A stretch of 64,000 nucleotides of DNA from Eledone cirrhosa (Eukaryota): positions 30,070,001 to 30,134,000 of the forward strand of contig OZ024763.1 of assembly GCA_964016885.1 (NCBI GenBank), written 5' to 3'. The notes below the pieces were generated by a model, which was given only the letters and a program-made list of their open reading frames with translations, was not told where the DNA came from and ran no database searches. This document shows positions 4,269 to 59,984 of this stretch, one piece after another. The translations under genes and the position numbers were made by a program. Position 1 is the first letter of the stretch; the number at the start of each line of letters is the position of its first letter.

Positions 4269-4302
4269 ATATTAGTTTCTGTATATTTTCTATCTTTTGT
4301 AG

Positions 4303-4375
4303 TTATCATGCCGAACCATTCCTATAATTGTAAAATCTAAAAGTACTGTCAAACTTTATTTGACATCACAAAAAG
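4303..4375 (+). other. Exon-like segment B of the repeated cassette (also 6121-6194, 9225-9299, 12085-12159, 15249-15322, 19070-19143, 52350-52422, 54507-54581, 58766-58839, 59563-59635)
   Basis: Acceptor attttctatcttttgtag and consensus donor AAG|gtaagt. Open frame LSCRTIPIIVKSKSTVKLYLTSQK. Length is 73-75 nt depending on copy, and the last copy has an in-frame TAA. Confidence 0.45.
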
Positions 4376-4380
4376 GTAAG

Positions 4381-22900: not shown

Positions 22901-24592
22901 ACTCAGCAGTTAATGCAGTGAAAACAAACAATAACAATATTATTACTAAATAATTATAATTTCTTACATTCAATAATTCTTTTTCTTAAACACGTAATTT
23001 ATTTCAAATTTGTCGTATCATATATATACTGTTTGTGTGTCTCTGTTTGTCAAGTGATTGACGGGGAGAAGCCGATCGATTAAATTGAACCTATAAAAAT
23101 GACTGGTACTCTATTTTTCTGCTATAAAATTGTAAATTAATATCCACCGAGAACACAAAGGTGGTGTAGTATCATTTAAAAATTAGAAATTGAGTTACAA
23201 ATATAAATGTGTGTTCAGGGCTTAGATGTTAAGTGTGTAACAGGGTTATTGGTATTAAGTAACATAAAATGTCGTTAGGAGTTCAATATTTAGCTGGGGA
23301 TATAGAATTTCTTTAAATTATTTCTTGTACCAGTAGCGAACTGGGATCGAAACCATTATGTTATTCGGACGAAAGAAATATACAAGCTTAGCTCAATCTA
23401 GTTGGAGTTACGGGACATTACTGCAAAGCACATCACTGTAGGTTCCAATCTTACATTGATAAAAGTGACGTTTAGCAATTTATTTGTAAGTCGCACACAG
23501 GATTTAGGTATGGCAGATTTGAAATTAGTGAACATTATTGCAGACGAAGTCATTGTAGGTTCAAATCAACACTAGGGCGTTAAGAAATAAAATGAATATT
23601 TACTTCATGAAAGAGCCTGAATTGTGAAAGACAGTCGACCCTTTCTAATAACAGCAACACTAAGAAAGGTACTCAATATATATGAGTATAAATATTTCAT
23701 ATAGAAATGTCTTCTGCGGGACAAGAACTGTTTCATTCGGAAAAAAATCATCAGGAAAGCCCTTGATTTCTTTCGAATGAAACCGTTCTAGTCCTGTAGA
23801 AGCCACACACATATATGTGTGTGTTCATAAGACCAATTGTCTATGATGATAAGGTCCCCCATCTTTGTATATTTATATGTCGATGTCTATTTCCACATGT
23901 CACATCTGGTCCTCGATGTTGTCACCGCCTGCTTTACGTAGCATCTTAACTATCTAATATTTATTCAGAGAGGTTCTCCCTTCATATCACAAATATTCCT
24001 TTCTGACTCACTGAAAACTTGTCTTGCATCATCGAGTAAAAGAGATCTAAAGAATCTGTCTGATGTTGCTATATATGTATGTAGCGACCTATAACTTGTG
24101 AGGGAGTCCTAGAGGCCCCACATTGACATTCAGGGTGTCTAGGGTACTTTGTAAAAGTTGACAGATCCCATCTCCACCCCCAGATCTCTTACAGAGAGTG
24201 AGAGAAAGGAATTGAGAAAAAGATATAGAAGAATCGACCCTAGTACTACACTGGTACTTGTTTCTAACTACCTCGAATGGTACAATAGCGAAACCTAAAC
24301 TTTGATGTACCTATATAAGTCATACCTGTTCTATATGTGATGTACGTACATATATGTATGTAAGTGTACCTGGCGTTGCAAGTTCGGTTTTCGTAAGTGT
24401 CTCTGAGAATCTTTACATGAGCAAGCATGTGTTCTGATGATTAGTCAATCGTTATTATGATGGTATGTGCTTTTAATATATATGTATGTATATTTACATA
24501 GAAGTGAGTAAATATGAATGTATGGGTATATATAAATGAAAATGGTCTTTCTAATTGCTAATACTATCTATCGGTCGAAACTCCAGGTAGAA

Positions 24593-25345: not shown

Positions 25346-25728
25346 ATTCAGCAGTTAATGAAGTGAATACATAAAATTTAAAAAAAAACATTCCTGAATA
25401 AAATAAATATTTTACTTTCATTAAATTGTTTCTTTACTTTCTTTTATAAAACACATTTAATAATAGAAATTAAGCACAGCAATGTAGGTTCAAATCTTAC
25501 TTGCATGTATATATAGGAACCACATTTAACAATTTACGGGTACGACTAAGCTGGAATGAGGTATGACATTATTGCAGACGGAGTTGTTGTAGGTTCAAAT
25601 CAAGCCTAAGAGCAATGAGAAATAAAGTCTAGATTTACTTTACCTCACACATATTTCACGGTCATATGTCTATATATATACATATATATGTAGACATATA
25701 TACACAGATATATATACATATATATGTA

Positions 25729-26434: not shown

Positions 26435-26537
26435 TTTATTTATATATATGTGTATAGATATATAAATAAATGTGTGTGTGTATATATACATATAAATATA
26501 TATGTTTGTGTGTATATATATATATATACATCCGTTT

Positions 26538-26820
26538 TGGTGACCCAGTGGTATGTATTAGAGGTGAATCCGTTCCTGGTCGTGAGTTCGATCTGAATCA
26601 GGATATAATCTCACTAAATCTTACTTTTCCCTTTTGTAAGAGAAAAAAATGTAAGACCCCCTTAATGTATGTCTTCATTGAAAACCAAACCAGGTCCTCC
26701 ACCGTCTCTAATAACCCCCACTAGGCCACCGTAACAATAACAGCTCCAGAACTAATTGAAATTTAATATATATGAAACTACTTTCTATTAGCAAGCTAAA
26801 TAGATGTGGTTACATTCATG
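26538..26820. other. Partial palindrome A with a convergent pair of tRNA-like units
   Basis: Plus unit ~26538-26603 (GACCCAGTGG...GAGTTCGATC) and minus unit ~26677-26733. Right flank is homologous to the other palindromes. Left arm is interrupted by TA tracts and insertions. Confidence 0.6.
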
Positions 26821-26863
26821 CTGGTTCCGTCTTATTAACATTACATAGAGCGGTGTCTTGGCA

Positions 26864-27052
26864 GGGGCGGTGTATTAGCAGAATCGGTAGAGGTTCGGAC
26901 GCTATGCTTTCCAGCATAGAGTTACGGCCCTTGCCATTCTGAGTTCAAATCCCGCCGAGGTTAACTTTGCCTTTCATCTTTACAGGGTCGATAAAATAAA
27001 GTACCAGTAATACACTGGGATAATTGTTGGCCTTGTGCCAAAATTAGAAACG
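26864..27052 (+). mobile_element. Full-length tRNA-derived SINE
   Basis: TAGCAGAATCGG A box, GAGTTCAAATCC B box, TTGCCTTTCATC..GGGTCGATAAAATAAAGTACCAG central domain and GGCCTTGTGCCAAAATTAGAAAC tail. Confidence 0.92.
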
Positions 27053-27279
27053 ATATAATATATAAATATTTATATATATATGTGTGTGTGTGTGTTTTAT
27101 TTGAACGTACAACATCGCTATATAAATCTGTTTTTATTTGTTAATAATTACATAAATGTAACTCTACAAACCCTGCTAAGGATTGAAACCCTGACTACAC
27201 ATTTACAGCAACAACAACGACATAATAATTTCTGGTTTAAAATAATCTTGTGTAATTCTTGGTAGAGATTGAACCTCGT

Positions 27280-27436
27280 CACTTTATCTCACTGTTTAGT
27301 CTTTCCAATTAACACCCTATATAAAAGGCAGTTTGTTCTGACTTCACACCTGATGTTCACAGTTGTCGAAGACTTACCACCACTCATGCTAAACACACTG
27401 CCAGTTAGATCTGTGCAGCGATGAAGGAAGGTCGTG
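27280..27436 (+). promoter_or_regulatory. Pol II promoter-like module P1 plus short first-exon-like segment
   Basis: TTATCT at 27284, TATATAAAA at 27318, donor-like GAAG|gtcgtg at 27430. The second GATA and the CArG box are deleted relative to P2-P4. Confidence 0.5.
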
Positions 27437-27746
27437 TTATTTCTACCTCTAATGAACAACATACATATGTTATCCATTAGAGAACAATACACAAGAGAAA
27501 GAATTAAATTGAGAATGTCAATCTTTGAAAAGGAAATTTTATTTCATTAACAAATTCAACGGCAATACATTGTACTGAAAGGAGAAATTAATTGTAAAGG
27601 AACCTTTATGGAGACGTAAGACCCCCTTAGTTTTAAGAACAAATGTACAGAAACACGAAATAAGAAATTAATTGAAATGGAACACACACAGATTTTAAGA
27701 CAAAATGATTGGGGGAAGTGTAAATATGCAGCTATCCTTGTTCATG

Positions 27747-27781
<35 letters not shown>

Positions 27782-27939
27782 GTGTATATTATATTCGTAC
27801 CTTTAAGGCAAAGGGCAGACGGTTTTTTTTTTTTTTTTTTTTACATCGTTTTTTTCGGGTAGAAAAGTACCTCTTATTCCCCACCCCACAAAAAATATAT
27901 TTCGAATATGTATGTTTTAATTGAAAGGTGGCTAACCAT

Positions 27940-28330
27940 GTTAAAGGCAAAAAGTAGCAAGTGAGACGATAGGAATAATAATTTACCTAGCTAAATGCAA
28001 ACAAATTTTAAATTATCGATGAATGATATGAGCGACACCACGTAGAGTATTCCGTAGGGACATGGACGCACGACAGAAAATATTGAAAGAATCCAGAGAA
28101 GAACAAAAAATGAAACAAAAGAATTAAGAAATCTGTCTCGAGAATAAAGATGTAAAAACTTAGTTACAACTTGGGAGGAGATAAAACAAAGGGGAGACAT
28201 GATAGAAATATTTAAGATGATGGAAGGACTTGAAATTACGGAAGAAATTGTAAATCTAAGAGGATACCATGCTCTAAAGACATCAGAAAAAATATATTTC
28301 TCAAAGAGATATTAGTGAATGGAATAGTTT
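27940..28330 (+). mobile_element. Decayed CR1/L2-type LINE RT C-terminal fragment (paralogues ~31580-32030, 35050-35460, 42680-42980, 60280-60570)
   Basis: Broken frames give VEYS..W, IERIQRRTKNETKELRNLS, TTWEE..QRGDMIEIFKMMEGLE, matching the ERxQRRATK..LxxLSYEERL..TLEERRxRGDxIExFK pattern. Confidence 0.85.
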
Positions 28331-29232
28331 AAATGGAGTAAATGATTATAAAAAGATATGACAGATGAAGAACGAATGAATAGATTGAAATATTTGTGAT
28401 GCTGAGTAAAAGTGAGCAGAAAGCATTGTAGTGAATTTGATCTTGCTATGGCAATAAGAAAAGAACTCAGTAAATCTCGCAACGCTTCAAAATGTATCGA
28501 CTAACTTAGAATGGTATCAACTGGCTTGGACATAAATACAGTTTAGTCGTCACTCCATGAATTTGTTAACGGTGAATATATTTTACATGAAAATATACAG
28601 AGATCCGTCTTCCATGATGTAGATTACGATAATGTCGGTGAAACTCATTAATTTACTTCAAATACTTTCATTATTGTATGTAGTTAAGTTCGTTAAAGAT
28701 TTCGTGTACTAAAAACTTTCGTACTGTTTGTAGTCGGCAAAATATAAACTTGAAAATTCGTTAATTATGCCTGTCTTCCAATCTCATGTTGATAAATCAG
28801 AATAATGTCATAGATTTTCGACATAATCGGAATGTCATTTCTAAAACTACGAATTACTTGAAAAATTACAAAACACAACACAAAAACAATGTTTACCTTC
28901 GAAAGTATATGTCTATAAAATATGTATTATTCGAAGTAAGTTTTAAGAAAACGAGTCGGATGTGAGAGGAGGGGCATTAAACTATATTTATGTCTAACTT
29001 CAGACATCAAATTGCGGCTGAGATTCTTTCTGCCATCGAGTGTTCCTTTGAACGTCAATTTTTAAATATTTGTCTCTCTTTAAAGATGGATTATCTTTTG
29101 AAAAACTAATGTTAGATTATTCGTGGTTGGTCTGTGTGGTTTGTTTTGAAATAGCATCTCTGTCTCATAGACAGGTCAAATTTGATCAAGTCGAACATGT
29201 CTTTAAAACGAAATATTGCGTAAAAGACACAC

Positions 29233-29417
29233 CTTATGTTTATCTCGGGTATTGCGGTAGATATCCTGATGTCTCCAGTTTGTAAAGTAATCCACAAAGC
29301 AAAAGACATCCAGTAAACCTTGGTAATCCAGTTTCGCCGTAGCCGCCATTTGCAATAGAATATAAGCAGAAACAAAAACAAAAGGCCACACTGGACAGTT
29401 AATGTATTGAAAATCAC
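29233..29417 (-). CDS. Paralogous exon E3 (within ORF 29112-29417)
   Basis: LLFLFLLIFYCKWRLRRNWITKVYWMSFALWITLQTGDIRISTAIPEINI. Differs from E4 by two 3-nt deletions. Donor-like AG|gtgtgt at 29233/29232. Confidence 0.55.
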
Positions 29418-30244
29418 AATAAAAATAAAACTACTGAATAAAAATGTCTTGCTGTCATTATTTAATTTGTTTCATTTATTTATTGCTAACACATACTTTC
29501 ACACACATAGATAAACTCTTTTTTTGTAACTGAGGCAAAAGTCAGAAATTTACGGGGAGAATTCGATCGATTAAATTGATTCCACTATGTGACTGGTACT
29601 ATACTTTATCTATCCAAAAATAAAAATGTTAAATTAATCGGCCAGATTTTCACCGAGATGAGAACACAAGGTGAAGTAATATCATTTAAAAATTGAGGTG
29701 TTATTATTTTATCATTTAGTTACAAAGTCGTGTGAGACTTGGTAGTTAAGTATTTAATGTAGTTTGTGGTGCTGTCAGGAGTTCAATATTTAGCTGCGGA
29801 TATAGAATTTCTTTTATTTTTAAGAAACGAAAAACATATACATATCGCTATTTAGTTGAAATTGTGTAAAATTACTGCAAAACATATCATTGTAGGTTCA
29901 GATCTTACACTGCTACATATATTATCTATATAGAAATCAGGTTTAACAATTTACGGGCGTATTGTACGAGGTGGGAATATTTCACACACACAAACCAGGT
30001 ATGATAGATTTAAAGTTAGTAAATATTATTGTAGACGGGGACATTGTAGGTTCAAATCAACCGTAGAGCGATAAGAAACAAAGTGAAGATTTAATTTATG
30101 AAAGACCCAGGAGGATGAAAGACAGAGTCGACCCTTTTTAGTATTTATAACATTGAGTAAGGCATGAACGCCACCACATCAATTTTGCTTGAAAATAGTA
30201 AAGTAGGTTTATAAATATTAATTTTCCATAACTTTTTGTAGCAA

Positions 30245-30315
30245 GTTTCGGTGGCCTGGTGGAGGGTATGAGAGACGGTGAAGATCCTGGTCTCGGGTTC
30301 AATCTTGGCCAGGAC
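30245..30315 (+). ncRNA. tRNA-like A/B-box unit, putative Pol III (plus copies ~26538, 33717, 36933, 40910, 41079, 41240)
   Basis: A box TGGCCTGGTGG 30252-30262 and B box GGTTCAATCT 30296-30305. TTTATAAATA lies ~35 bp upstream and a T-run downstream. Acceptor and anticodon stems do not pair, so it is not a tRNA. Confidence 0.4.
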
Positions 30316-30390
30316 TAGAGGGATCTTAATAAAAAAAATTCAAAAATTTTTTCTTTTATCTCTAGTAAAATGAAAAACGTTAGTGTTGCT

Positions 30391-30460
30391 CCTGGCCGAG
30401 ATTGAACCCTAAACCAGGATCTTCACCGGCTCTAACACATACCATTAGCCAACAGAGACT
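30391..30460 (-). ncRNA. tRNA-like A/B-box unit, convergent partner (minus copies ~26677, 33863, 37158, 41376)
   Basis: Reverse complement TTGGCTAATGG...GGGTTCAATCTCGGCCAGGA, with its own upstream TTTATAAATA and a downstream T-run. Confidence 0.4.
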
Positions 30461-30877
30461 GACACAAAAGTACTATGAAAATTTATATTTATAAAGCTAC
30501 TTTTCTATATGCAAGCAAACTTGATGTGGTGGCCTTCATGTCTTTTTCCATGTTATTCGCACTACCAACGACCGACCTTGTATTTTATTCCTCTGGAGCT
30601 TTCAGAAACCTACCTTGTATTTCCAAGCATAATAGATGTTGTGGCATTCATGTCTTTCTCAGCATTATCAATACTTCAAAAGGGTTGACATTGGATTTTT
30701 ATTCTTCTGGCAATTTCAGAAAATATATCTTCACTTACTTTCTCTAAGGTTCATTTCATCCTACAACCCGATAATCTGCAGTGGCCTTCTTCAACTGTCA
30801 TACCTCACTATTAAATTTATTGATGTCCTTCGTTAAAAATAACCTACTGTAATTCTTGATAGAGATTCAACCCTGTC

Positions 30878-31081
30878 ACTTTATCTCACTATTTATTCAG
30901 GGACCAAGATCGGAGAATGTTGATAAGGGCAGAAGATTGTATCCTTATTTGGTCCGACTTTCGAGTTAACCCGGTATAAAAATGGCACTATGTTGGGACT
31001 TAATACTAAACACGTGATGTTCACCGTTGTCAGCTAAACACACTGCCAGTTTGCTATCTGCAGCGGTGAAAGAAGGTCGTG
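30878..31081 (+). promoter_or_regulatory. Pol II promoter-like module P2
   Basis: TTATCT 30881, TGATAAG 30921, canonical CArG CCTTATTTGG 30943-30952, TATAAAAA 30975, CACGTG 31011, GAAG|gtcgtg 31075. Confidence 0.6.
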
Positions 31082-32653
31082 TTATTTCTACCTCTCACAT
31101 ACCACATACATTCTTTTATCGGTTAGATAACAATATAAAAGAGATATAATGAATATGAGAATGTCAGTCTTTTATAAGTATAGTTTATTATATTAGAGCA
31201 AAATCTTGAATTAACGATAGTTTGTGACACTAAACGTAAAATGGACGAAGCAACAATACGAACATTGTAAAGCAAATTAATTATTATAAGAAGGAGAAAT
31301 GATTGCATCTTCAAGGGCCACACAATCTATTGAAAATCGAAATGAGATATTGATTGAAATGGAACACTCACGGAGACCTCATACGGCATTTTTCGGAAGA
31401 GTTATAAATAGGGATATACTTATACATGGCGATTACAAACATATATAATTATCATATTCGTATCTTGGATGTATAAGACGCCAGCAGGTTTTAACAACGA
31501 ATTTTTATGTAAAAATGTGTCTCTTGTTTCACCCACCCCAACAAAATCGGAATATGTAACAATTTGAATTTAACGTTAACTAACCATCTCACATAAAAAA
31601 AACCCACAACACCAAGTCGGATTATAGGAATGATAAAATATTACTATACCTACCAACATACAGAAATATTGAAACTCTAAATAAATGATATGTGTGATAC
31701 TACTTAGAATATTATGTACAGGTATGGTCACCCGACTTCCGAAAGGAGAGAGAAGCTATTGAAGGAATCCAGAGAAGAAATAAGCATGAAATACCAGAAT
31801 AATTAACAAATCTGTCTTGACAAGAAAGGTGTAAAAATCTAGGAATTACAACTTTGGAGGAGATAAAACTAAGGGGAGACACGACAGAAATATTTATGAT
31901 AATGAAAGGACTTGAAAATCAGAAGAAAATGTAAGAAGAGGACACCATTATACTGTTTATAAGATACAATGCTCTAAAGACATCAGAAAATATATATTTC
32001 TCAAAGAGATATTAGTGAATAGAATAGTTTAAATGATGGTGTAGACGACACAACAGTAAATGATTATAAAAAGATATGGCAGATGAAGAACGAATGAATA
32101 GATTGAAATATGGGTGATGCTGAGTAAAAGTGAGCAGAAAGCATTGTAGTGAATTTGAACTTGCTATGCCTTCCAATCTCATATTGCAAACGTATAATAT
32201 CAATCAGGATAATGTCATAGATTTTCTACATGATCGGAATGACAATTCTAAAACTACGAATTACTAGAAAAGATGAAAATATAAACAAAACACATTATAA
32301 TGTATACCTTCGAAGGTATATCTCTATAAAATATGTATTATTGAAGGATTTGAGTAAAGGAATCGGATATGAGAGGAGGGGCATTAAACTATATTTATGT
32401 CGTGAAAAATGTCTAACTTCAGACATTAAATTGGGGCTGAGATTCTTTCTGCCATCGAGTGTTCCTTTGAACGTCAGTTTTTAAATATTTGTCTCTTTAA
32501 AGATGGATTATCTTTTGTAAAACTAATTTTAGATTATTCATGGCTGGTCTGTGTGGTTTGTTTTGAAACAGCATCTCTGTCTCGTAGACAGGTCAAATTT
32601 GATCAAGTGGAACATGAGTCTTTAAAACGAAATATTGCGTAAGAGACACACAC

Positions 32654-32817
32654 CTTATGTTTATCTCGGGTATTGCGGTAGATATCCTGATGTCTCCAGT
32701 TTGTAAAGTAATCCAAGAAGCAAAAGACAACATCCAGTAAACCTTGGTAATAATCCAGTTTCGCCGTAGTCGCCATTTGCAATAGAAAATAAGAAGAAAC
32801 AAAAACAAAAGGCACAC
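32654..32817 (-). CDS. Paralogous exon E4 (within ORF 32593-32817)
   Basis: LLFLFLLIFYCKWRLRRNWIITKVYWMLSFASWITLQTGDIRISTAIPEINI. YCKWRLRR differs from E5 at 7 nt, all synonymous. Confidence 0.6.
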
Positions 32818-33469
32818 TGGGCAGTTAATGTATTGAAAATCATAATAAAAATAAAACTACTGAATAAAAATGTCTTACTGTCATTATTTAATTTGTTTTA
32901 TTTATTTATTGGTAACACATACTTTAATATATATAATATATATGTATATATATATATATATATTTACACATACAGATACACCCTCTTTGTTTGTAACTGA
33001 GGCAAAAGGCAGAAATTTACGGGGAGAATTCGATCGATTAAATTGATCCCACTATGTGACTGGTACTATATTTTATCTATCCAAAAATAAAAATGTTAAA
33101 TTAATCAGGGTCAGATTTTCATCGAGATGAGAACACAAAAAGGTGAAGTAATATCAATTAAAAATTGAGGTGTTATTATTTTATCATTTCGTTACAAAGT
33201 CGTGCGAGACTTGGTAGTTAAGTATTTAATGTAGTTTGTGGTGCTGTCAGGAGTTCAATATTTAGCTGGGATATAGAATTTCTTTTATTTTTAAGAAACG
33301 AAAAACATATACATATCGCTATTTAGTTGAAATTGTGTAAAATTACTGCAAAACATATCATTGTAGGTTCAAATCTTACACTGCTACATATATTATCTAT
33401 ATAGAAATCAGGTTTAACAATTTACGGGCTTATTGTACGAGGTGGGACTATTTCATACACACACAAACC

Positions 33470-34277
33470 AGGTATGATAGATTTAAAGTTAGTAAATATT
33501 ATTGTAGACGGGGACATTGTAGGTTCAAATCAACCGTAGAGCGATAAGAAACAAAGTGAAGATTTAATTTATCAAAGACCCAGGAGGATGAAAGACAAAG
33601 TCGACCCTTTTTAGTATTTATAACATTGAGTAAGGCATGAACGCCACCACATCAATTTTGCTTGAAAATAGTAAAGTAGATTTATAAATATTAATTTTCC
33701 ATAACTTTTTGTAGCAAGTTTCGGTGGCCTGGTGGAGGGTATGAGAGACGGTGAAGATCCTGGTCTCGGGTTCAATCTTGGCCAGGACTAGAGGGGTCTT
33801 AATGAAAGAATTCAAATTTTTTTAATTTTATCTCTAGTAAAATGAAAAACGTTAGTGTTGCTCCTGGCCGAGATTGAACCCTAGACCAGGATCTTCACCG
33901 GCTCTAACACATACCATTAGCCAACAGAGACTGACACAAAAGTACTATGAAAATTTATATTTATAAAGCTACTTTTCTATATGCAAGCAAACTTGATGTG
34001 GTGGCCTTCATGTCTTTCTCCATGTTATTCGCACTACCAACGACCGACCTTGTATTTTATTCATCTGGAGCTTTCAGAAACCTACCTTGTATTTCCAAGC
34101 ATAATAGATGTTGTGGCATTCATGCCTTTCTCAGCATTATCAATACTTCAAAAGAGTCGACATTGGATTTTTATTCTTCTGGCAATTTCAGAAAATATAT
34201 CTTCACTTACTTTCTTTAAGGTTCATTTCATCCTACAACCCGATAATCTGCAGTGGCCTTTTTCAACTGTCATACCT
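33470..34277. repeat. Diverged palindrome C (tandem copy of B, period 3472 bp)
   Basis: Near-identical to 29997-30805. Matching ORF starts at 30475 and 33947 give the period. Confidence 0.9.
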
Positions 34278-34349
34278 TACTATTAAATTTATTGACGGCC
34301 TTCGTTAAAAATAACCTACTGTAATTCTTGATAAAGATTCAACCCTGTC

Positions 34350-34562
34350 ACTTTATCTCACTGCTTATTCAGGGACCAAGGTCCTCAATCTCGGAGAATA
34401 TTGATAAGGAGAGCAGATTGTATCCTTATTTGGTCCGTCTTTCCAGTTAACACGGTATATAAATGGTACTCTGTTGGGATTTAACACTAAACACGTGATG
34501 TTCACCGTTGTCAGCTAAACACACTGCCAGTTTGCTATCTGCAGCCGTGAAAGAAGGTCGTG
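34350..34562 (+). promoter_or_regulatory. Pol II promoter-like module P3
   Basis: TTATCT 34353, TGATAAG 34402, CCTTATTTGG 34424-34433, TATATAAA 34456, GAAG|gtcgtg 34556. Confidence 0.6.
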
Positions 34563-35809
34563 TTATTTTTACATCTCACGTACATTCTTTTATCGGTTAG
34601 ATAACAATATAGAAGATAAAGATTGAATATGAGAATATCAGTCTTTTAAAAGTATAATTTATTATATAAGAGCAAAATCTTGAATTAACGATAGTTTGTG
34701 AAGCTAAACTTAAAATGGACGAAGCAACAATTGTATGACAAATTGGTTATTGATAAGAAGAAATGATTGCATCTTCAACGGCAATACAATCTATTGAAAA
34801 TCGAACACTTACAGAGACCTCATACAGGATTTTTCGGAATACATTTTGAAGAAAATATGTTTTGAAGAGTTAAAAATAGGGATATACATATACATGGCTA
34901 GTATATACATGTATACTTTAATTATCATATTTGTATCTTGAACGTATAAGACGCCAGCAGGTTTTAACATCGAATATTGATGTAAAATTGTGTTTTTTTT
35001 GTTTCACCCACCCCCAACAAATGTGGAATATGTATCAATTTGAATTTAAAGGTAGCTAACCATCTCCCAAAGTCGGATTATAGGAATGATGAAATATTAC
35101 TTTACCTACCTAAATACAGGAATATTAAAACTCTAGATAAATGATATGGTCACCCGATTATATCAAACTATTGAAGGTCACCCGACTATATCAGAAACTA
35201 TTGAAGGAATCCAGAGAAGAAAAAAGCATGAAATACCAGAATTCTTGAGAAGAAAGATGTAAAAAGCTAGGAATTACGACTTTGGAGGAGATAAAGCTAA
35301 GGGGAGACACGACAGAAATATTTAAGATAATGAAAGGACTTTAAATTACAGAAGAAAATGTAAGAAGAGGACACCATTATACTGTTTATAAGAAACAATG
35401 CTCTAAAGACATCAGAAAATATATATTTCTCAAAGAGATATTAGTGAATGGAATAGTTTAAATGATGGTGTAGACGACACAACAGTAAATGATGATAAAA
35501 AGATATGACAGATGAAGAACGAATGAATAGATTAAAATATTTGTGATGCTGAGTAAAAGTGAGCAGAAAGCATTGTAGTGAATTTGAACTTGCTATGGCA
35601 ATAAGAAAAGAACTCAGTAAATCTCGGAACGCTTCAAAATATATCAACTAACTTAGAATTGTATCAACTGGCTTGGACATAACTATTAATCAAACGAGTG
35701 ACATGATAGAAATATTTAAAATAATGAAAGGACTTCAAAATACAGAATTGGGGAAGAAAATGTAAATATAAGAAGAGATGACCATTGTACTATGTATAAC
35801 ATAACAATG

Positions 35810-36030
35810 CTCCTTACATTTATCCCAGGTATATAGAGGGATATTCCGATGTCCACTGTTTGTAAAATAATTGTTTCTACTTTAGGCACAAGGCCAGCAA
35901 TTACCCAGTGCATTACTGGTACTTTTTGTAAAATAAAGCAATAAGGAAACAACATCATCCAGTAAACCTTAGTAATACTCCAATAACGTCTCAGCCGCCA
36001 TTTACAGTAGAAAATAGTAAGAAAATTAAG
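35810..36030 (-). CDS. Paralogous exon E5 carrying an in-frame SINE-tail insertion
   Basis: LTIFYCKWRLRRYWSITKVYWMMLFPYCFILQ[KVPVMHWVIAGLVPKVETIILQ]TVDIGISLYIPGINVR is open throughout. Confidence 0.55.
35871..35924 (-). mobile_element. 54-bp SINE 3' tail with 12-bp target-site duplication
   Basis: TTTGTAAAATAA at 35859-35870 and 35925-35936. The paralogue E1 has the empty site. Confidence 0.92.
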
Positions 36031-36685
36031 TCACACTCAGCAGTTAATGCAGTGAAAACAAACAATAAAAATATTATTACTAAATAATTATAATTTCTTA
36101 CTTTCAATAATTTTTTTTCTTTATTAAACACGTAATTTATTTTAAATTTGTCGTATTATATATATATATATATACTGTTTGTGTGTTTTTGTTTGGCAAA
36201 TGTCAAGTGATTGACGGGGTGAAGCCGATCGATTAAATTGAAACCATAAAATGACTGGTACTCTATTTTTCTTCTCTAAAGTTATAAAATTGTAAATTAA
36301 TATCGACAGGATTTTCACCTAGAACACAAAGGTGGTGTAATATCATTTAAAAAATTGGAAATTGAGTTATAAATATAAATGTGTGTTCAGGGCTTAGATG
36401 TTCAGTGTGTAATGGGGTTATTGGTATTAAGTAACATAAAATGTCGTTAGGAGTTCAATATTTAGCTGGGGATATAGAATTTCTTTAAATTATTTCTTGT
36501 ACCAGTAGCGAACTGGGATCGAAACCATTATTTTGTTCGGACGAAAGAAATATATAAGCTTAGCGCAATCTAGTTGGAGTTACGGGACATTACTGCAAAG
36601 CACATAACTGTAGGTTGCAATCTCACATTGGTAAATATATAAAAGTGACATTTAACAATTTATTTGTAAGTCGCACACAGGATTT

Positions 36686-37463
36686 AGGTATGGCAGATTT
36701 GAAATTAGTGAACATTATTGCAGACGAAGTAATTGTAGGTTCAAATCAATACTAGGGCGTTAAGAAATAAAATGAATATTTACTTCAGGAAAGACCCTGA
36801 ATTATGAAAGACAAAGTCGACCCTTTCTAATAACAGCAACACTAAGAAAGCCATGAACGCCACCACTTCAATTAATCTTCAAAAATCAAAAGTATGTTTA
36901 TAAATATTAATTTTTAATATTATTTTGAAGCTGTCTTTGTAGCCTAGTGGGAGGTATGAGAGACGGTGGAGATCCTGGTCTGGGTTTCGATCTTGGCCAG
37001 GATCTATATAAAATAAGGGGGTTTTACTATTTTTTTTCAGCTTTTTTCAATGCAAACGTAAAAAAATCTATGGTAAAATGAAAAAAAATTTTTATCTACT
37101 TTTTTACATTTTTAAAAAGCTGAAAAAAATTAGTAAAACCCCCTTATTTTATATAGATCCTGGCTAAGGTTGAACCCCAAACCTCGATCTTCACCGTCTC
37201 TAACACCTACCAATAGGCCAACGAGACGGATATAAAAAGATACTGAAAATTAATATATATAAACCTACTTTCTATTTTAGAAGCTTAATTGACGTGGTGG
37301 TGATCATGGCTTTCTCAGTCTTTTTAATACCACAAACAAGTCGCCATGGTTTTTACTTTTCTGGAGTTTTCAGAAAATATATCATGACTTTTATTCTTAT
37401 CACTAGGTTTATTTCATCCAACGACCAGCTGATATCCAGTGATGTCCTTCAGCTGTCACACCT
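36686..37463. repeat. Diverged palindrome D with a near-perfect inner stem
   Basis: Same arm family. Inner AGGATCTATATAAAATAAGGGGGTTTTACTA...CAGCTTTTT is mirrored at ~37113-37161. Confidence 0.9.
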
Positions 37464-38170
37464 TAGTGAGTAGATGGTGGCCTGGAAATATTGTTTCTAA
37501 ACAGGCAGCTCTTTAAACTTGTGTTGTGTGTGCAATAATGGTATCAGCAACCGATGATGGGATCAGATTCAAGAACTCAACGTCAAGTGTATCCTTCCAA
37601 ACGCGATACGGTAATATATGTTCTTTTTATCAGCTTCGTCTTTTATTTATAAACGTTTATGTAGGTACGTGTGTAGATACGTGTACGAATGTGTACCTGT
37701 GTAAGTTGTGTGTACATAACTATTTATAATAATGTTGTCCCCCCTCACTTTATTATTACAACTACTACTATTAATAATTGTAACACTATTATTATTATTA
37801 TTTTCTCACGTCTCTTATCCTCAACACTTGCTATAGTTTTCCTCTTACATGTGAGATACACGGTTTATTTACTAATCAACATTTACTCGAAGATGTAGAG
37901 ATGTGTGACGGGACATCGAGCGTAATCCTTAGTGTTAACTTGAGGACACCGTACACCTGTGCACCCGTATATATATATATGTTTATCCCGGGTTCAATCG
38001 GCGGTAACCACAGTAAGTAAGGTACTCATTACATAGCAGATTATAAATACTTAATAAATAATATTTAATATAGAAATGGCTTCTACAGGACTAGAACTGT
38101 TTCATTCGGAAAAAATCATCAGGAAAGCCCTTGGTATCTTCCGAATGAAACCGTTCTAGTCCTGCAGGAG

Positions 38171-38225
<55 letters not shown>

Positions 38226-39155
38226 TATATATGTATGTATGTATGTATATATGTATATTTGTGTGTGTGTGTGTGTGTATTCATAAGCCCAATTGTCTAT
38301 GATGATAAGGTCCCCCTATCTTTGTATATTTATATGTCGATGTCTATTTCCACAAGGCATTTCTGGTCCTCGATGTTGTCACCGCCTGCTTTACGTAGCA
38401 TCTTAACTATCTAATATTTATTCAGAGAGGTTCTCCCTTCATATCGCAAATATTCCTTTCTGACTCACTGAAAACTTGTCTTCCATCATCGAGTAAAAGT
38501 GATCTACATAAAGGATCTGTCTGATGTTGCTATGTATGTATGTAGGGACGTATAGCTTGCGAGAGAGTCTTGGTGACCCCACGTTGATATTCGGGGTGTC
38601 TTGGGTATTTTGTAAAAGCTGACTGATCCCATCTCTACCCTAGATCTGATCACAGGAGATATTTACCAGAGAAGGAGAGAAAGTAGGAGAAAGGAAGTAA
38701 GAAAGAGATATAGAAGAAGAATCGACCCCAGTACTACACTGGTACTTCGTTTTATCTACCTCGAATGGTGCTATAGTGGAACATTAACTTTGATGTACCT
38801 ATATAAGTCATACCTTTTCTATACGTCTGTCTATGTACAGGTGTGTGTATGTAAGTGTACGTGGCGTTGCAAGTTCGGTTTTCATAAGTATCTCTGTGAA
38901 ATTTTAACAAGAGCAAGCATGTGTCCTGATGGTTAGTCAATCGTTTTTAAGCTGGTATATGGTATGTGTTTTTAATATGTATATATATTTACATAGAAGT
39001 GAGTAAATATGAATGTATGGGTATGTATATACATATATAGACAGTCGATCGACCTTCGTCAGATCGGACCGACGAAACAATGTTTCCACTGGTCTTTCCA
39101 ATTGCTAATACTATCTATCGGTCGAAACTCCAAGTTGAAATAAATAAATTAATTA

Positions 39156-39201
<46 letters not shown>

Positions 39202-39994
39202 TAAAATATATATATAATAAAACAAGGACGAATGGGTACACCTTCATTACGTTTATTGGTTCGTGGCGCGCGTTTCGCTATTCATCAGCTTAAGGTTCGT
39301 TCTGTATCGATCTAGCCCGACTCTGTAATCAATAACTAGTATATATATGTGTGTATGTATATATGAAATCGCCCATGGGACACCCTGGTGTAATCTAAAT
39401 ACACAGAGTGTGGGGTTATCTGTTTTTAAATGATTACCCCTCCTCATATTCCCTTGTTTATATACTGTATTGTAATACATGGCAACCTTAATACTTAATA
39501 ATATCGAGATGAAAATATAAATGTTAATACAGTATTCCAGAAGTAAAATAGAGATCTAATGAGAGGAGGTGAGTATTATAACTTTTATAAGAAATAAAGA
39601 TCTAAAGACGAGTGAAAACTTTCATCAACGAAATCGTAATGTACACCAACGAAAATATGTCTACAGAATACAGATTAGTAAAATAAAGTTAGAGCAAATA
39701 AATGAGAGGTCACTTAACTTTACATATTTAGTTTTATTTATATCGTGAAAAATGTTGATCTTCAGATATTAAATTGTGGATGTGATTGTCTTTGTCTTTA
39801 CGTGTTTGTTGGAAATCCTTTTATAATGTTTGTCTTTCTTTAAACATTGTCTTTTTAAAAAATTAATTTTAGATTATTCGTACCTCATCTCTGGTCTCTT
39901 TTGATGGAGTCTACCTGTCCTGTTTATTGGTTTTATTTTAAAAGTAATCCATTGGAACATCAGATATTAAATGAAATGTTACGTAAAAGACACA

Positions 39995-40132
39995 CCATAT
40001 GTTTATTCCAGGTATTTAGAGAGATGTCCACTGACAACAAAATAATACAATAAGGAAATGCCATCATCCAGTAAACAATGGTAAGAACAAACAAAAACAA
40101 GAGAACTATTCAGCAGTTAATGAAGTGAATAC
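39995..40132 (-). pseudogene. Paralogous exon E6, internally deleted
   Basis: VLTIVY is joined directly to WMMAFPYCIILLSVDI (deletion between the two TTTACTG motifs), with a further frameshift. Confidence 0.55.
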
Positions 40133-40324
40133 ATAAAATTAAAAAAAAACATTCCTGAATAAAATAAATTTTTTACTTTCATTAAATTGTTTCTTTACTT
40201 TCTTTTATAAAACACACTTATTAATATAAATTAAGCACAGCATTGTAGGTTCAAATCTTACTTGCATGTATATATAGAAAGCACGTTTAACAATTTACGG
40301 GTACGACGAACTAAGCTGGAATGA

Positions 40325-41669
40325 GGTATGACATTATTGTAGACGGAGTTGTTGTAGGTTCAAATCAAGCCTAGAGCAATGAGAAATAAAGTCTAGATTT
40401 ACTTTATGAATTCAAGGACGTCCCGAAAAAGTCATGAATGCCACTACATCGAGTTTTCAACCGAACAAAATGTAGTTTTATAAATATTAATTTTCACAAC
40501 GAATTCGTACAGTCCCTATAATTTGCACACACGCAAAGTTTTTGCATCAATTTTTGCGTTTAAGTCAGGCAAGAGTTATGTTTCTTGGCAAAAATTTCAA
40601 GTTTGTTTACAAAAAAAATCCTTTTGTTTAAAAAAGTTCGCCTGAATTTTGACCAAAGATTTTCAATCTTTTCACTTCCGGTTTCTGTATTTTTCATAAA
40701 AAACAACAATAAATATGCTAGAAATAGCATCAAAGCAACGCATATACATGTATACACACATAAATACATATGTTTATTTATTTATTATGAGTACAAATTA
40801 AAGTTTAAGCAAAGAATCGCTGCTTTAAACTTGTTACGGGGTCGTCAGAAACAATAGTTTATTTGAATTACTTCCGAACAAAATGTAGTTTTATAAATAT
40901 TCGTACATTCTCTCTGGCCCAGTGGTATGTATTAGAAACGGTGAAATCCTGGTCTAGAGTTCAATCTCTATCTGGTTCTACACTATGGGTATTATTAAGT
41001 TTTAGTTTACCTCTTCTAAAATAAAAACCATTAAAAAGTAAGTTTATAAATATTAATTTTCACTACGATTTCATAACCGTCTCAGTGGTCTAGTGGTAGA
41101 CATTAGAGACAGTGGTGATATTGATTAGGGGTTCGATCTCTGTCAGGTGTACATGAAAACCTTGTACAGAAATTTTATTTTTATAAAAAATTGAAAAAGT
41201 AGGTTTATAAATATTAATTTTCAGTAAGATTTTATAACCGCCTCCGTAGACTAGTGGTGAGTATTAGAGGTGGTGGAGATGCTGGTCTGGGGTTCGATCT
41301 CAGTCAGATTCCTGCAACCTCTTTTTTTTCGTTCATTTTATGAAAAATATAAAAAAATTAAATTTCTCGAGAGATTCCTGACTGAGATTGAACCCCAGAC
41401 CAGCATCACCACTGTCCCAACACCTACCAATAGGCTACCAAGACAACTACAAAAATACTATCGAAATTAAAATTTATAAACCTACTTTCTATTTAAAAGA
41501 AAAATTGATGTAGTGGCCTTCATGGCTTTCCCAATGATATTAATTCAAAATGGTTCACTTTCATTTTTATTCTTCTCAAGCTTCCATAAAATATACCTTA
41601 TCATTTCTCTAGGGTTGATTTCATCCTACAACCTGATGATCTGCAGGGACATTCATCAATGGTCATACC
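40325..41669. repeat. Palindrome E with tandemly reiterated left-arm tRNA-like units
   Basis: The TTTATAAATATT block recurs at ~40478, 40890, 41043 and 41204. Three plus A/B-box units face one minus unit at 41376-41445. Confidence 0.8.
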
Positions 41670-42165: not shown

Positions 42166-43648
42166 GTTTTTTCTCCTATCACATAACACATACAGTTGTC
42201 ATTCATTAGATATCAATATAGAAGAGAAAGAAAAAATTGTGAGCTTCACTCTTTTAAAAGTAACATTTATTACATTAGAGCAAAATCATGAATTAACGAT
42301 AGTTTGTGACACTAAACATGGAAACACTGCGAACAATTTTGAGACAAGCTAATTACTATGAGGACAAATCTTCAACGCCAAGATATTTCTAAAGAAAACT
42401 GAAATGAGAAATTGATTAAAATGGAATAATTATTGAGACACCTTACAATATTTTTCGGGATATGTCTTACCTTATTTTGAAGAAATAAATGTTTCGGGAA
42501 AGAGTTAATAAGAAGCTATATATATATACATTGCTTATATATATATATATACTTTAATTATTATATTTGTACAACGAAGTTATAAAAAGGAAGCATGATT
42601 TGGTATCGAATGTGGAGCAAAAGACGAGCTTCTTATACCCCTCACAGAAGAATTGTGAATATGTATGAATATGAATTGAAAGATGGCTAACCTAACCATG
42701 TTGAAGCAAAAGAGGGAGACGGATAATAGAAATAATAAAACATTCTGTTCCCTAGCTAATTGCTGAAAAATCTAAAACTCTAGATGAACATGTATGATAC
42801 CACTGAGAAAATTGTCAACCGACATCCGTAAAAACGGTGAGGCTCTTGAAGCAACCAAGAGAAGAAGAAAACAGAAAACACTATAATTATTTAAGGATCT
42901 ATCTTGTGAAAGAAATGTGAACTTTTGTAAATTTAGAGGAGATAAATCTTAGGGGAGCAGGATAAAAATATAAAGACTATTTAAATATTAGTACACTATT
43001 CCATATAAATGTCAAGACTTGAAAATATCAACATTAGTTCACTATACCAAGGACAAACACTTAGAATTACAACTTTGGAGGAGATTAATCAAACGAGTGA
43101 CATGATAGAAATATTTAAAATAATGTTTTAATGAAAGCACTTCAAAATACAGAATTGGGGAAGAAAATGAAAATTAATAGATATATCAACCTACTTTCTA
43201 TTTTCGAAGCTTAATTGACGTGGTGGCGTTCATACCCTTCTCAGTCTTATTAATACCGCAAAGGTGTCGACATGTCTTTTACTATTCTGTAGTTTTCAGA
43301 AAATATATCATGATTTTATTTTTATCTCTTTTGGTTTGATTTGAAGCTATAACCACCTGATGTCCTTCAACTGTCATACCTCAGTGTATAGATGGTGGCC
43401 TGGCTTGATGGTTTCTAAACAGATAGCCCTTTAAACTTGTGTTGCGTATGCAATAATCGTATCAGCAAATGATGATGGGACCATGTTGAAGCAACGTTAT
43501 GTGCATCCTTCCAAATTCGATATGGTAAGCTATGTTCTTTTTATCAGCTTCGGCTTTTATTTATAAACGTTTATGTACGTACGAGTCTAGATAAGCGTAC
43601 GTATGTATACCTGTTTAAGCTTGTGTGTATATAAGTATTTATAATAAT

Positions 43649-43930
43649 TGTTTCTACGTTTGACACAAGGCCAGCAATTACCCAGTACATTACTTGTACT
43701 TTCTTTTATCGACCCTGTAAGGATGAAAGGCAAAGTTAACCTCGGCGGGATTTGAACTCAGAATGGCAAGGGCCGTAACTCTATACGTCAAAGCATGGCG
43801 TCCGACCCTCTACTGATACTGCCAATCCACCGCCCTCTAAACAACGCCTTTCATCCTTACGGGGTCGATAAAATAAAGTACCAGTAATGTACTGGGTAAT
43901 TGCTGGCCTTGTGGCTAAAGTAGAAACAAT
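43649..43930. mobile_element. Composite head-to-head double SINE insertion
   Basis: Full minus SINE ~43649-43835 plus truncated plus SINE ~43846-43930, inside one 19-bp duplication TATAAGTATTTATAATAAT (43630-43648, 43931-43949). Confidence 0.9.
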
Positions 43931-44902
43931 TATAAGTATTTATAATAATGTTGTCCTCCCCACTTTATTGTGACAACTACTACTATTAATAATTTTAACA
44001 ATATTTTTATTATTAATTCCACACGTCTCTTATCCTCAACACTTGCTATGGCTTTCCCTCTTACATGTGATATATACTTACTATATATTTACTAATCAAC
44101 ATTTAATGGAAGGTGTAGAGATGTGTGACGGGACATCTGGCGGAATCCTTAGTGGCGACATGAGAACTCCGTACACCTGTGCACCCGTATATATTTATAT
44201 GTATATGTGTGTGTGTGTGTTCATAAGCCCAAATGTCTATGATTATAAGGTAACCCTATGTGTGTTATGTCCATTTCCACATGGCATCTCTGGTCTTCGA
44301 TGTTGTCGCCGCCTGCTTTACGTAGCATCTGAACTATCTAATATTTATTCAGAGAGGTTCTCCCGTCATATCGCAAATATTCCTTTCTGACTCACGGAAT
44401 ACTTGTCTAGCATTATCGAGTGAAAGATATAAAAGATATCTCTGATGTTTCTATGTATGTATGTAGGGACCTATAACTTGTGAGGGAGTTGTAGAGGTCC
44501 CACATTGACATTCGGGGTGTTCGGGGTATTTTGTATAAGGGGACAGATCCGATCTCTACCCCAGATAGGTTATGTTTTCCTGAGACGGATATAGAGTGAG
44601 AGAAAGGAATTCAGAAAGATATATAGAAGAATTGACCCCAGTACTACACTGCTACTTCGTTCTAACTACCTCGAATGGTTCAATAGTGGAACAAAATCTT
44701 TGATGTACCTATATAAGTCATACCAGTTCTATTTGTGTGTTTATGTACATATGTTTCCGTCAGTGTACGTAGAGTAGCAAGTTCGGTTTTCACACGAGCA
44801 AGCAAAGCATGTGTCCTGATGGTTTGTCAATCGTTATTATGCTGGTATATATGTGTTTTTAATATATATGTATGAGTATTTGCATAGAAGTGTTTATGCA
44901 TG

Positions 44903-45423: not shown

Positions 45424-45613
45424 ATTGTTTCTACTTTTGGCACAAGGCCAGCAATTATCCCAGTGCATGACTGGTACTTTATTTTATCGACGCCGTAAGG
45501 ATGAAAGGTAAAGTTAACCTCAGCGGGATTTGAACTCAGAGCGTAAAGGGCCGTGACTCTATGCTGCAAAGCATGGTGTCCGACTCTCTACGGATACTGC
45601 CAATCTACTGCCC
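45424..45613 (-). mobile_element. Full-length tRNA-derived SINE
   Basis: Reverse complement of the 26864 family. 15-bp duplication TATAAAAAGAAATAT at 45408-45422 and 45635-45649. Confidence 0.9.
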
Positions 45614-45849
45614 TTAAAATTGTATTATATTTCTTATAAAAAGAAATATAATACAATATTTACAGAACGAAAGCACAAACAAATATATAATATAATATAA
45701 TATAAAGGAAAGGGAAAGGAAAAACAAAAGAAAAAAAAACACAGAAGCTAGATGTTTCGACAGCTAGATCCGAACTAATTTGTTTGCAACGTGTTTTAAT
45801 ATGAAATCGTATGTCGAAACAAATTATATTTGGGAAGGGTCATATTGTT

Positions 45850-46555
45850 ATAGTATTGCCAAAAATATATAATAAAACAGTTTGGGTTGGGTTGGTTTTG
45901 GCTTCCGTATATTCTACATCCCTATAGTTAATTTAGCTGGCAATCAATGTTTATCATTGATTGACCAACTGTTTATATATATATATATTTATTTATAGTC
46001 TGAATTCTTTCATCACACACTTGTGACATTATCAGTGATATTATTGTTTCCTCCCGTTGTATTGTAATGTTTACTTATTCAATTGTTTATTTATTTGTCT
46101 CGATTTCCGAATGTGTTTCTATGCGCGTTTTCTGTTTGGTTTGTGTTCGTGTTTGTATTCTATCTTTGGTCACTAGTGTGTATTTGTATGGTTGTTGTTG
46201 TTCCATTCAAGTTTTCTGTTCTACTTCGGCTTTCTTGGTTCTATTTCAGTTGCTTCCCTAATTCAGGGATTTTATAGTAGATCCTGGCTTTTCTACCACT
46301 TTAATCTTTCTTATGGCCTTTGATTGGTTGTTGTACCATCATTACAATACAACAGGAAGAAACAATAGTATCACTGATCTCACAGGTGTGTGACGAAAGA
46401 ACTCTGGGAGACTATATATATATATATAAAACTGTTGGTCAATCAATAAAACATTGATTGCTAGTTAAATTAACTATAGGGATAGATATAAAATATATGG
46501 AAGTGAAATCCAACCCAAACCAAAAAGTGAGTTTTATTATTTCTGGCAATATAAT
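45850..46555 (-). mobile_element. Penelope-like retroelement remnant with inverted terminal repeats
   Basis: ~220-bp inverted arms (45850-46069 and 46339-46555). The interior 46203-46308(-) translates KIKVVEKPGSTIKSL and IREATEI..RKPK*NRKLEW, resembling the PLE linker and GIY-YIG C-terminus. The arms hold decayed CTGAT..GAAA motifs. Confidence 0.7.
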
Positions 46556-46647
46556 AATATCCCCCACCCCTATATATATTTATATATATATATATATATA
46601 GGGGTGGGGGATATTATTATATTTCCAGAAATAATAAAACTCACTTT
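46523..46647. repeat. Near-perfect inverted repeat around a (TA)n tract
   Basis: AAAAGTGAGTTTTATTATTTCTGGCAATATAATAATATCCCCCACCCC (TA)n GGGGTGGGGGATATTATTATATTTCCAGAAATAATAAAACTCACTTTT. Confidence 0.92.
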
Positions 46648-46964: not shown

Positions 46965-47251
46965 TAGTAATGGGCTAGAATGGTTTGACGTTGTACCTCT
47001 GTAGTTAGACGACTTAGATTTTCCATGCATTATGGCGTGAAACGACTGAGAGTACAAGATTCCACCCTGGACAGGGCGCCAGTCCATCGCAGGGTTAAAC
47101 CCCCATCTATTGTTGGTACTCATTTTCAGCTGAGTTTACTGGAGCAACGTGAAATAAAGTGTTTTGCTCAAGAACACAACACAGAACCCAGGAATCGAAC
47201 CCACGATGTTATGATTGTAAGTCCAAGACCCTTACCACTAGGCCACGTGCC
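46965..47251 (-). mobile_element. tRNA-derived SINE (complete duplicate of 1-241)
   Basis: Same A/B boxes and central domain, with the 3' tail present. Confidence 0.8.
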
Positions 47252-59967: not shown

Positions 59968-59984
59968 TATGTATAAAATAGTTT

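Follow-up and report, generated by a model that had tools for sequence, protein, structure and literature searches.

Arrangement of the units

The DNA analysed here is a stretch of 64,000 nucleotides of the Eledone cirrhosa genome (assembly GCA_964016885.1, contig OZ024763.1, positions 30,070,001 to 30,134,000 of the forward strand), in the following called the window. It contains a family of short units that resemble tRNA-like RNA polymerase III (Pol III) transcription units. A preliminary description had counted about 12 of them, each with an A box and a B box. Three single-unit nhmmer searches over the window and a covariance model both gave the same set of exactly 12 homologous units, which bears out this number. 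The units scored 62.5–91.8 bits with the covariance model, values that are high by construction because the units built the model, and the next match reached only 13.6 bits. The cores of the 10 non-duplicate units are 53–81% identical in pairwise comparison (median 69%), and each copy departs from the consensus at 9–21 of 73 positions. The feature is real and non-random. It lies in AT-rich DNA (32–34% GC in the region) with microsatellites and decayed pieces resembling long and short interspersed elements (LINEs and SINEs), and no long reading frames apart from low-complexity or chance frames were found over the units.

The units are grouped as five inverted, tail-to-tail pairs, A–E; pair E comprises three plus units and one minus unit. 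The sign in the unit names denotes the strand. With an arm profile the palindromes were delimited at 26527–26850 (A, only about 324 bp), 30028–30783 (B), 33501–34255 (C, a recent tandem copy of B), 36717–37441 (D, with an almost perfectly symmetric centre), and 40871–41648 (E, including the three plus units). B, C, and D measure 725–756 bp; the length of about 800 bp given originally fits B–E roughly and does not fit A. The right arm of B carries a duplicated upstream block lacking a unit (30606–30783). By the arm profile, plus and minus arms are homologous across about 290 nt, a segment that starts ~215 nt upstream of the predicted start and ends ~20 nt beyond box B.

Nine units have an intact promoter. 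Unit B+ (30238–30321, predicted transcript 30240–30352) has its TATA sequence at 30210 and a T-run from 30347, and unit B- (30383–30466, predicted transcript 30373–30463) has its TATA sequence at 30493 and a T-run from 30377. In pair C the units are located at 33711–33794 (C+, TATA 33683, predicted transcript 33713–33822) and 33855–33938 (C-, TATA 33965, predicted transcript 33845–33935). Unit D+ (36926–37009, TATA 36899, predicted transcript 36929–37037) is the best-preserved copy, and its partner D- is situated at 37151–37234 (TATA 37261, predicted transcript 37123–37231). Pair E contributes E2+ (41072–41155, TATA 41045, predicted transcript 41075–41182), E3+ (41233–41316, TATA 41206, predicted transcript 41236–41329), and E- (41369–41451, TATA 41478, predicted transcript 41351–41448). 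E2+ and E3+ arose via local tandem duplications of ~160 bp comprising TATA, unit, and trailer and starting just upstream of the TATA block.

The remaining three units are promoter-broken. Unit A+ (26527–26610) has a (TA)n tract in place of TATA, three mismatches in box B, and no run of at least five T. Unit A- (26659–26742, found by the covariance model and by nhmmer; with its degenerate upstream block 26649–26850) has a variant TATA shifted by 5 nt, five mismatches in box B, and an internal T4, and its 3' hairpin is gone. In E1+ (40901–40983) 19 nt have been deleted between TATA and unit.

The palindromes are passengers of a ~3.5-kb block that has been duplicated in tandem, and they occupy the same place in one block copy after the other. 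Self-BLAST showed that 28772–32168 is repeated at 32167–35597 with 88% identity over 3.4 kb; these two tandem monomers of ~3.4 kb (28772–35597, plus strand) hold B and C, and each of them includes a decayed LINE-like fragment. The D block is repeated at 60806–64000, and A-type flanks recur around E. The same LINE-like fragment is present at 28.1, 31.8, 35.2, 35.7, 43.1, and 60.5 kb. D and C are about 77% identical over ~700 aligned nt upstream of the arm; such pairwise flank identities are inflated by permissive gaps (a non-homologous control gave 66%), and a consensus-deviation test was therefore used instead. As tandem and inverted duplication took place at the DNA level, shared upstream flanks are expected and are no evidence for a promoter. 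The preliminary description had argued from these flanks to Pol III genes; this argument is wrong as stated, because the duplicated flanks (B/C 88%, D/C 77%) explain the sharing.

Seven orphan arms without a unit start at 23537, 25571, 30606, 34078, 40336, 43160, and 61453 (arm profile). Among them are an upstream arm with no unit behind it (40336–40509, plus strand), an upstream arm of the D- type whose unit was lost (43160–43365, minus strand), and the orphan distal arm of a further monomer (23537–23670, plus strand), with another at 25571–25642. In the copy of the D monomer at 61453–61665 (plus strand) about 490 bp of the palindrome core including both units are missing. The tree of the unit cores is star-like, with seven of eight inner branches unsupported, and gives no supported order of events among the copies. 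The arms of D are identical at 28 of 29 nt just past the units and at 75% within the units, which suggests recent conversion at the centre of this palindrome, near the hairpin tip (37003–37157). One sample contig skips 37011–37204. The centre of palindrome A has the same trailer as that of D. We read the palindromes as an old, unstable inverted gene duplication and not as a functional unit.

Promoter geometry and terminators

The TATA sequence lies 86–88 nt upstream of the TTC of box B in nine of the 12 units; a variant is found at -92 in A- and at -68 in E1+, and A+ has none. The TATA sequence at ~35 bp upstream that had been ascribed to each intact unit thus holds for nine units, whereas it is a variant in A-, shifted in E1+, and absent from A+. 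A purine follows exactly 30 nt after the first T of TATA in 9/12 units, preceded by a pyrimidine in eight of these (background after the same TATA motif, units included: purine 32/54, pyrimidine–purine 15/54). In the nine promoter-intact units, positions counted from this predicted start are +12/13 for the beginning of box A and +55–57 for that of box B, and a run of at least five T begins at +87 to +108 in all nine. In E2+, D+, and D- a T4 lies 5–9 nt ahead of this run. These values agree with the positions given for type 2 genes in PMC7279448, where box A extends from +12 to +22, box B from about +54 to +64, and TATA lies near -30. Nine of the 12 units show the type 2 geometry, in which TATA is situated near -30, box A lies at +12 and box B near +55, and the gene ends in oligo-T.

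Box A has 0–2 mismatches in all units and box B 1–2 mismatches in 10 of 12, with a gap of 32–33 nt between the boxes. Box B lacks one consensus C in every unit, and its core (TTC-A) is invariant (12/12). Pairs of box A and box B with two mismatches each are not rare by chance (2–17 per shuffled 24 kb), so that the case is built on homology and geometry.

A T-run shortly downstream had been noted before, and a run of at least five T does start 29–49 nt past box B in 10/12 units compared to 7–9% at random positions. It is kept in otherwise divergent trailers, and both units without it are promoter-broken. After trailer shuffling the chance of a T5 is 0.06–0.50 per unit, and local composition thus accounts for part of the T-runs.

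A conserved block further upstream (about -78 to -47) is present in seven of the 12 units, namely in both units of B, C, and D and in E-; examples are 30163–30194 (B+), 36851–36882 (D+), 37278–37309 (D-), and 41496–41527 (E-). Its position is that of a putative proximal sequence element (PSE). The block had been attributed to all intact arms; it is degenerate in A- and absent from E2+ and E3+ despite their TATA sequences. Since E2+ and E3+ lack it, either the block would be dispensable or these two copies may be weak.

About 190 nt upstream of the predicted start a further motif, TTGTAGG.T.AAAT, was observed on the plus arms (30040–30060, 33513–33533, 36735–36755), which have a second copy ~150 nt further upstream, and on the minus arms near 37420 and 41630. 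Its pairwise mismatch is 0.19 compared to 0.3–0.5 in its neighbours, in both arm orientations, and it is a candidate distal promoter element.

Conservation within the duplicated arms

As the flanks are duplicated as well, only conservation in excess of the duplicated neighbours argues for function. We therefore aligned ten divergent arms, omitting the B copies as near-duplicates of C and dropping columns with fewer than four rows. In the TATA block 9/192 A/T cells are off consensus, compared to 78/484 in the distal duplicated arm (Fisher p = 2e-5). For the G/C cells the values are 20/111 in the upstream block (p = 0.009) and 67/336 in the unit (p = 0.0025), compared to 70/222 distally; all these p-values are optimistic, since cells are non-independent and both the segments and the structure were picked after the alignment had been seen. 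The most variable part of the arm is the spacer from TATA to the start. Between D and C one indel event was counted in 294 nt of arm and 13 in 786 nt of flank (p = 0.07). From the aligned copies, conservation beyond the duplicated neighbours is focused mainly on the TATA block. The excess in this block, and more weakly that in the upstream block and the unit, argues for function.

Predicted fold of the unit

The majority consensus of the ten non-duplicate units is predicted to fold into two hairpins (-43 kcal/mol, z = -6.9), and none of 500 shuffled sequences folded as well. In hairpin 1 the 5' end would pair with the former anticodon region in a 7-bp helix around a D-arm-like stem. Hairpin 2 is predicted as a 7-bp stem running into a 5-bp T-arm-like stem around TTCRA. 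With the two-hairpin structure 78% of the cells are paired, with a cloverleaf 60%, and with slid controls 38–49%.

That the units do not fold as cloverleaves had been stated before and was corroborated here. The anticodon arm is paired in 22.6% of the cells (in the register tested) and the acceptor in 63.6%, ARAGORN called no tRNA gene in the window, and Rfam gave no match over the window at the gathering score. A relaxed ARAGORN call on the consensus was discarded as worthless, as the window yields 18 calls at a similar threshold. At E<=10 Rfam returned only microsatellite- or hairpin-driven miRNA matches and chance matches.

The seven promoter-intact, non-duplicate copies kept 139 of 161 pairs compared to 126 in simulated neutral decay (p = 0.0015; leave-one-out, 1 of 1000), whereas the three promoter-broken copies kept 42 of 69 compared to 47 expected. 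Pair-keeping and pair-breaking transitions number 22 and 9 in the intact and 12 and 11 in the broken copies. D+ retains all 23 consensus pairs, D- and E- 21 of 23 each, and E1+ 12 of 23; E3+ shows a compensatory pair change within the 5' helix. Judged by the folding results, the ancestor of the units clearly had a non-cloverleaf fold, and selection on the fold is likely to be continuing. By the same calculations D+ (z = -3.95) and D- (z = -3.27) are the best candidates for active genes.

Copy number

Depth was assessed with contigs of three public runs of one sample (about 40–44% words shared), aligned at 80% likeness on 33000–37950. The summed depth was 393–7,040 in the five unit bins, 193–5,073 in other bins, and 3.7–4.3 million on the repeat fragment 35822–35987; summed depth is not a copy number and gives an order-of-magnitude contrast only. 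The bins of the D units are a few times above their flanks, as paralogous arms predict. Because of the ~1000-fold contrast in depth a young high-copy SINE or miniature inverted-repeat transposable element (MITE) is unlikely, though depth at 80% likeness misses an old family diverged by more than 20%. Neither a SINE body or tail nor a target-site duplication was found at the units. Their homology stops about 20 nt past box B, and the trailers differ and end in T-runs; the preliminary description was right that a SINE body and tail are lacking.

Over palindrome D (36362–37317) low-depth contigs (3–15 compared to several hundred) were observed that are about 85–88% alike; they may represent rare paralogs or DNA of a related organism. 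The very high-copy repeat that served for comparison is SINE-like and is found at 26865–27054, 43681–43934, 45424–45613, and 35822–35987, with a summed depth of about 4 million on the last fragment; the first three of these pieces resemble repeats of octopuses. Its A/B-box head folds as one long hairpin (-37 kcal/mol), and at 43.6–43.9 kb two of its pieces form an inverted pair.

Interpretation

We consider it on balance probable that the units are a small, lineage-specific family of tRNA-derived, refolded Pol III RNA genes under birth-and-death evolution, with transcripts predicted from the promoter and terminator positions. Small Pol III RNA genes had already been proposed in the preliminary description; promoter geometry, terminators, focused conservation, and the consensus fold support this proposal, whereas its argument from the flanks fell. 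The ancestor was likely a tRNA or the head of a tRNA-type SINE, and the predicted RNAs of 87–108 nt would form two hairpins. The family likely spread by inverted duplication and then by tandem duplication of the ~3.5-kb block, as judged from the repeat structure.

The order of elements in an intact unit is TATA 30 nt ahead of a purine, box A at +12/13, box B at +55–57, a short variable trailer, and a run of at least five T. TFIIIC is expected at the internal boxes; positioning of TFIIIB would fall to the canonical TATA, aided by the block at -78/-47. TATA and block may in this way offset the consensus C that is constantly missing from box B. In the predicted RNA the retained D-arm would be enclosed by pairing of the 5' end with the former anticodon region, and the old 3' acceptor strand would have a new partner strand atop the T-arm. 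Such an RNA would have neither anticodon nor acceptor end, and therefore no decoding role is expected. In the weakest step, which is drawn by analogy with lineage-specific Pol III RNAs, it would most likely act as a protein-binding or decoy RNA. Copies have evidently been gained through duplication and lost through promoter damage or deletion of the palindrome core.

Several observations weigh against this interpretation. Even at E<=10 no unit is scored by the tRNA model of Rfam; descent from a tRNA therefore rests on the box spacing and on the D- and T-arm-like stems. The pair excess of the intact copies weakens to p = 0.012, 0.051, and 0.081 when CpG, high-transition, and C>T-biased models are used, and it is confined to the 5' helix and the T-arm, with none in the new 3' stem and the D-stem. 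Counted by column, the transition asymmetry is 13 to 8 (p = 0.19), covariation is not above column shuffling (104 of 500), and RNAalifold recovers only 11 pairs. Seven predicted transcripts were folded, and of these D+, D-, and marginally E3+ (z = -2.0) alone beat their shuffles; the others reached z = -0.9 to -1.6. The A/T cells of upstream block and unit are not better conserved than those of the distal arm (p = 0.9 and 0.75). Finally, no homolog was found outside this organism, scans of metagenome and viral contigs with unit-body patterns giving no match. Five metagenome matches to a loose pattern of the upstream block were rejected as chance, as none fits the arm profile or the covariance model.

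The main rival is a dead family. Its ancestor would be a structured Pol III gene, or a SINE head situated behind a TATA-like sequence; duplication would have multiplied it, and all copies would by now be in decay and without function. The distances from the consensus (9–21 of 73 positions), the frequent loss documented by seven orphan arms and three broken units, and the covariation that is not significant all speak for it. Moreover, at all three differences within the structured cores of C+ and C- (33737, 33901, 33923), among the 40 of 399 differences listed, another sample has the consensus letter, so that the B and C copies of the window look recently damaged. The unit consensus also has a 14-nt box-A stretch in common with a SINE-like head at 47.2 kb (3/500 shuffles). 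Against a dead family speak the focus of conservation on the TATA block and on the G/C sites of unit and upstream block, the T-runs retained although the trailers diverge, and the difference in pair retention between promoter-intact and promoter-broken copies. We regard it as a possible but rather unlikely explanation.

It is improbable that the units serve as DNA elements, as TFIIIC-bound boundaries or chromatin organisers with RNA as a by-product. Clustered and inverted A/B-box pairs and the invariant TTC-A of box B would suit such a role. However, box B is always short of one consensus C, and binding of TFIIIC alone should need no TATA at a fixed distance, no T-runs, and no strong consensus fold.

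In the preliminary description it was also considered that read-through transcription of a whole palindrome gives long imperfect double-stranded RNA (dsRNA) for ADAR or Dicer. This is physically possible, since palindrome D forms a single long hairpin in the prediction (-286 kcal/mol, z = -19.6) with a centre that is symmetric at 28/29 nt, but every inverted duplication folds in this way, and the arms are 72–79% alike in the unit and only 61–67% distally. In each intact unit a terminator-like T-run precedes the body of the partner; Pol III transcripts of partners are therefore not expected to overlap, nor is Pol III read-through expected. Besides, neither E2+ nor E3+ has a partner, both being direct tandem copies. 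A function of the palindrome as a whole is thus very improbable.

The palindromes might instead stem from a foldback DNA transposon (MITE) of old age with tRNA-like sequence in its arms by chance. Several elements of about 750 bp with long inverted arms would be in line with this origin, yet it seems highly unlikely, since the outer flanks are common to all window copies and indicate one site instead of independent insertions, no target-site duplication is common to B–E (none in B and C, different 5–6-mers in D and E), conservation at the outer ends is among the lowest of the arm (pairwise mismatch 0.32–0.51 vs 0.13–0.15 at TATA), the unit bins resemble other bins in depth at about 1000-fold below the dispersed repeat, and the GG..CC termini and TTAA-like flanks reported earlier were not confirmed.

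A more far-reaching form of the gene-family interpretation is tentative and rather less probable than the family itself: an expressed and selected invertebrate RNA family in which a tRNA was rewired at constant length, the D- and T-loops and the boxes being kept and the acceptor and anticodon strands re-paired into two hairpins, with a hybrid promoter of PSE/TATA and A/B boxes and with tail-to-tail palindromes that convert and delete. If this is true, the family would be an example of a tRNA switching its fold while the promoter boxes stay, and possibly a mimic of the tRNA elbow with a role in translational regulation or in the sequestration of dsRNA-binding proteins. Since intact copies are situated next to broken and deleted ones, the requirements for promoter and structure are directly testable. 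Should the upstream block be the PSE of this species, it would contribute to the definition of a Pol III promoter with which guide RNAs can be expressed. Should the units turn out to be silent, the array is an ordinary decaying duplication.

Other features of the window

On both sides of the array (3000–22600 and 50000–60000) a second tandem array was found; its units of ~2–3.8 kb combine low-complexity, CT-rich DNA with a minisatellite of 31 bp and a SINE-like fragment. A short palindromic repeat of ~100 bp is present in four copies (38077–38173, 23708–23805, 49360–49460, 62264–62360), and an inverted repeat pair of 250 bp lies at 45822–46069 and 46340–46581; both are possible MITEs. The different tRNA-type SINE-like head with the 14-nt box-A stretch is located at 47170–47256 on the minus strand. 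An open frame of 139 codons (48963–49382, minus strand) has six relatives at 60–70% identity in a protein search, and we take it to resemble the end of a LINE reverse transcriptase.

Comparison with known systems

In the literature search, which left subscription papers, supplements, and repeat databases outside, no described cephalopod counterpart was found, nor were mollusc U6 or PSE sequences. The available parts of PMC10886601, PMC4758252, and PMC6962438 describe nothing like the units. tRNA-derived sequence is nevertheless common in cephalopods, as PMC6962438 gives about 17,000 tRNA-derived loci for a squid genome.

With tRNA genes and pseudogenes (RF00005) the units share the A–B spacing of 32–33 nt, a D-arm-like stem around a GG loop, a T-arm-like stem around TTCRA, and a core of about 72 nt; they differ in having no anticodon arm, re-partnered acceptor strands, and no ARAGORN or Rfam call. 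For a type 3 Pol III gene (U6, 7SK, tRNA-Sec) a PSE in common with the snRNA genes of the species would be expected; the conserved block at -78 to -47 is a candidate for it, and E2+ and E3+ lack this block.

Vault RNAs (RF00006) are 80–150 nt long and have box A, box B, a T-run, and clustered genes (PMC8824774 and PMC7904556). Boxes, T-run, and clustering are found here as well. In contrast to vault RNAs the units have no 5'–3' panhandle, the consensus and the best copies forming two separate hairpins in the predictions, and the lophotrochozoan vault motif TTACTTCG after box A, as used in PMC8824774, is absent from the unit alignment. RF00006 gave no match in the window at E<=10.

We propose, by analogy and not by demonstrated homology, that the units may work like the lineage-specific Pol III RNAs of mammals. 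Rodent BC1 is a tRNA-derived Pol III RNA with A and B boxes and upstream control elements (PMC13034634), traits that the units would share. Unlike them, BC1 is a single-copy gene with a product of 152 nt and a central A-rich stretch and is the master gene of the ID SINEs, none of which was seen in the units; contig depth at 80% likeness in the one sample gave no sign of a high-copy SINE derived from them.

The primate snaR genes (about 30) code for structured Pol III RNAs of about 117 nt with box B and an oligo(T) end and spread by segmental duplication into inverted tandem arrays (PMC3045588 and PMC2094060). Inverted arrays spread by duplication, box B, and the oligo(T) end are common to both systems. 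snaR differs in its origin from Alu/7SL, in its oligo(A) tract, and in being transcribed with no upstream sequence, whereas the units seem to derive from a tRNA, lack a consistent oligo(A), and possess a conserved upstream TATA block.

The rodent 4.5SH and 4.5SI RNAs are lineage-restricted, about 94–98 nt long, and transcribed from a type 2 promoter with A and B boxes and an upstream TATA-like box; each 4.5SH gene lies in a 4–5-kb tandem repeat, and 4.5SI is related to the tRNA-derived B2 SINE, with its sequence restructured (PMC7279448). The same paper states that animal type 2 genes are generally without a canonical TATA. The units differ from 4.5SH and 4.5SI by their canonical TATA, their tail-to-tail pairs, and copies that are 53–81% alike instead of homogeneous, and Rfam is blank for them. 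They resemble them in predicted size, in the combination of A/B boxes with an upstream TATA, and in the setting of a tandem repeat of kilobase size. If expressed and selected, the family would stand as a counterpart of BC1, 4.5S, and snaR that arose independently in an invertebrate, and the route from tRNA or SINE to new RNA genes, for which these three compared cases are all mammalian, would be general.

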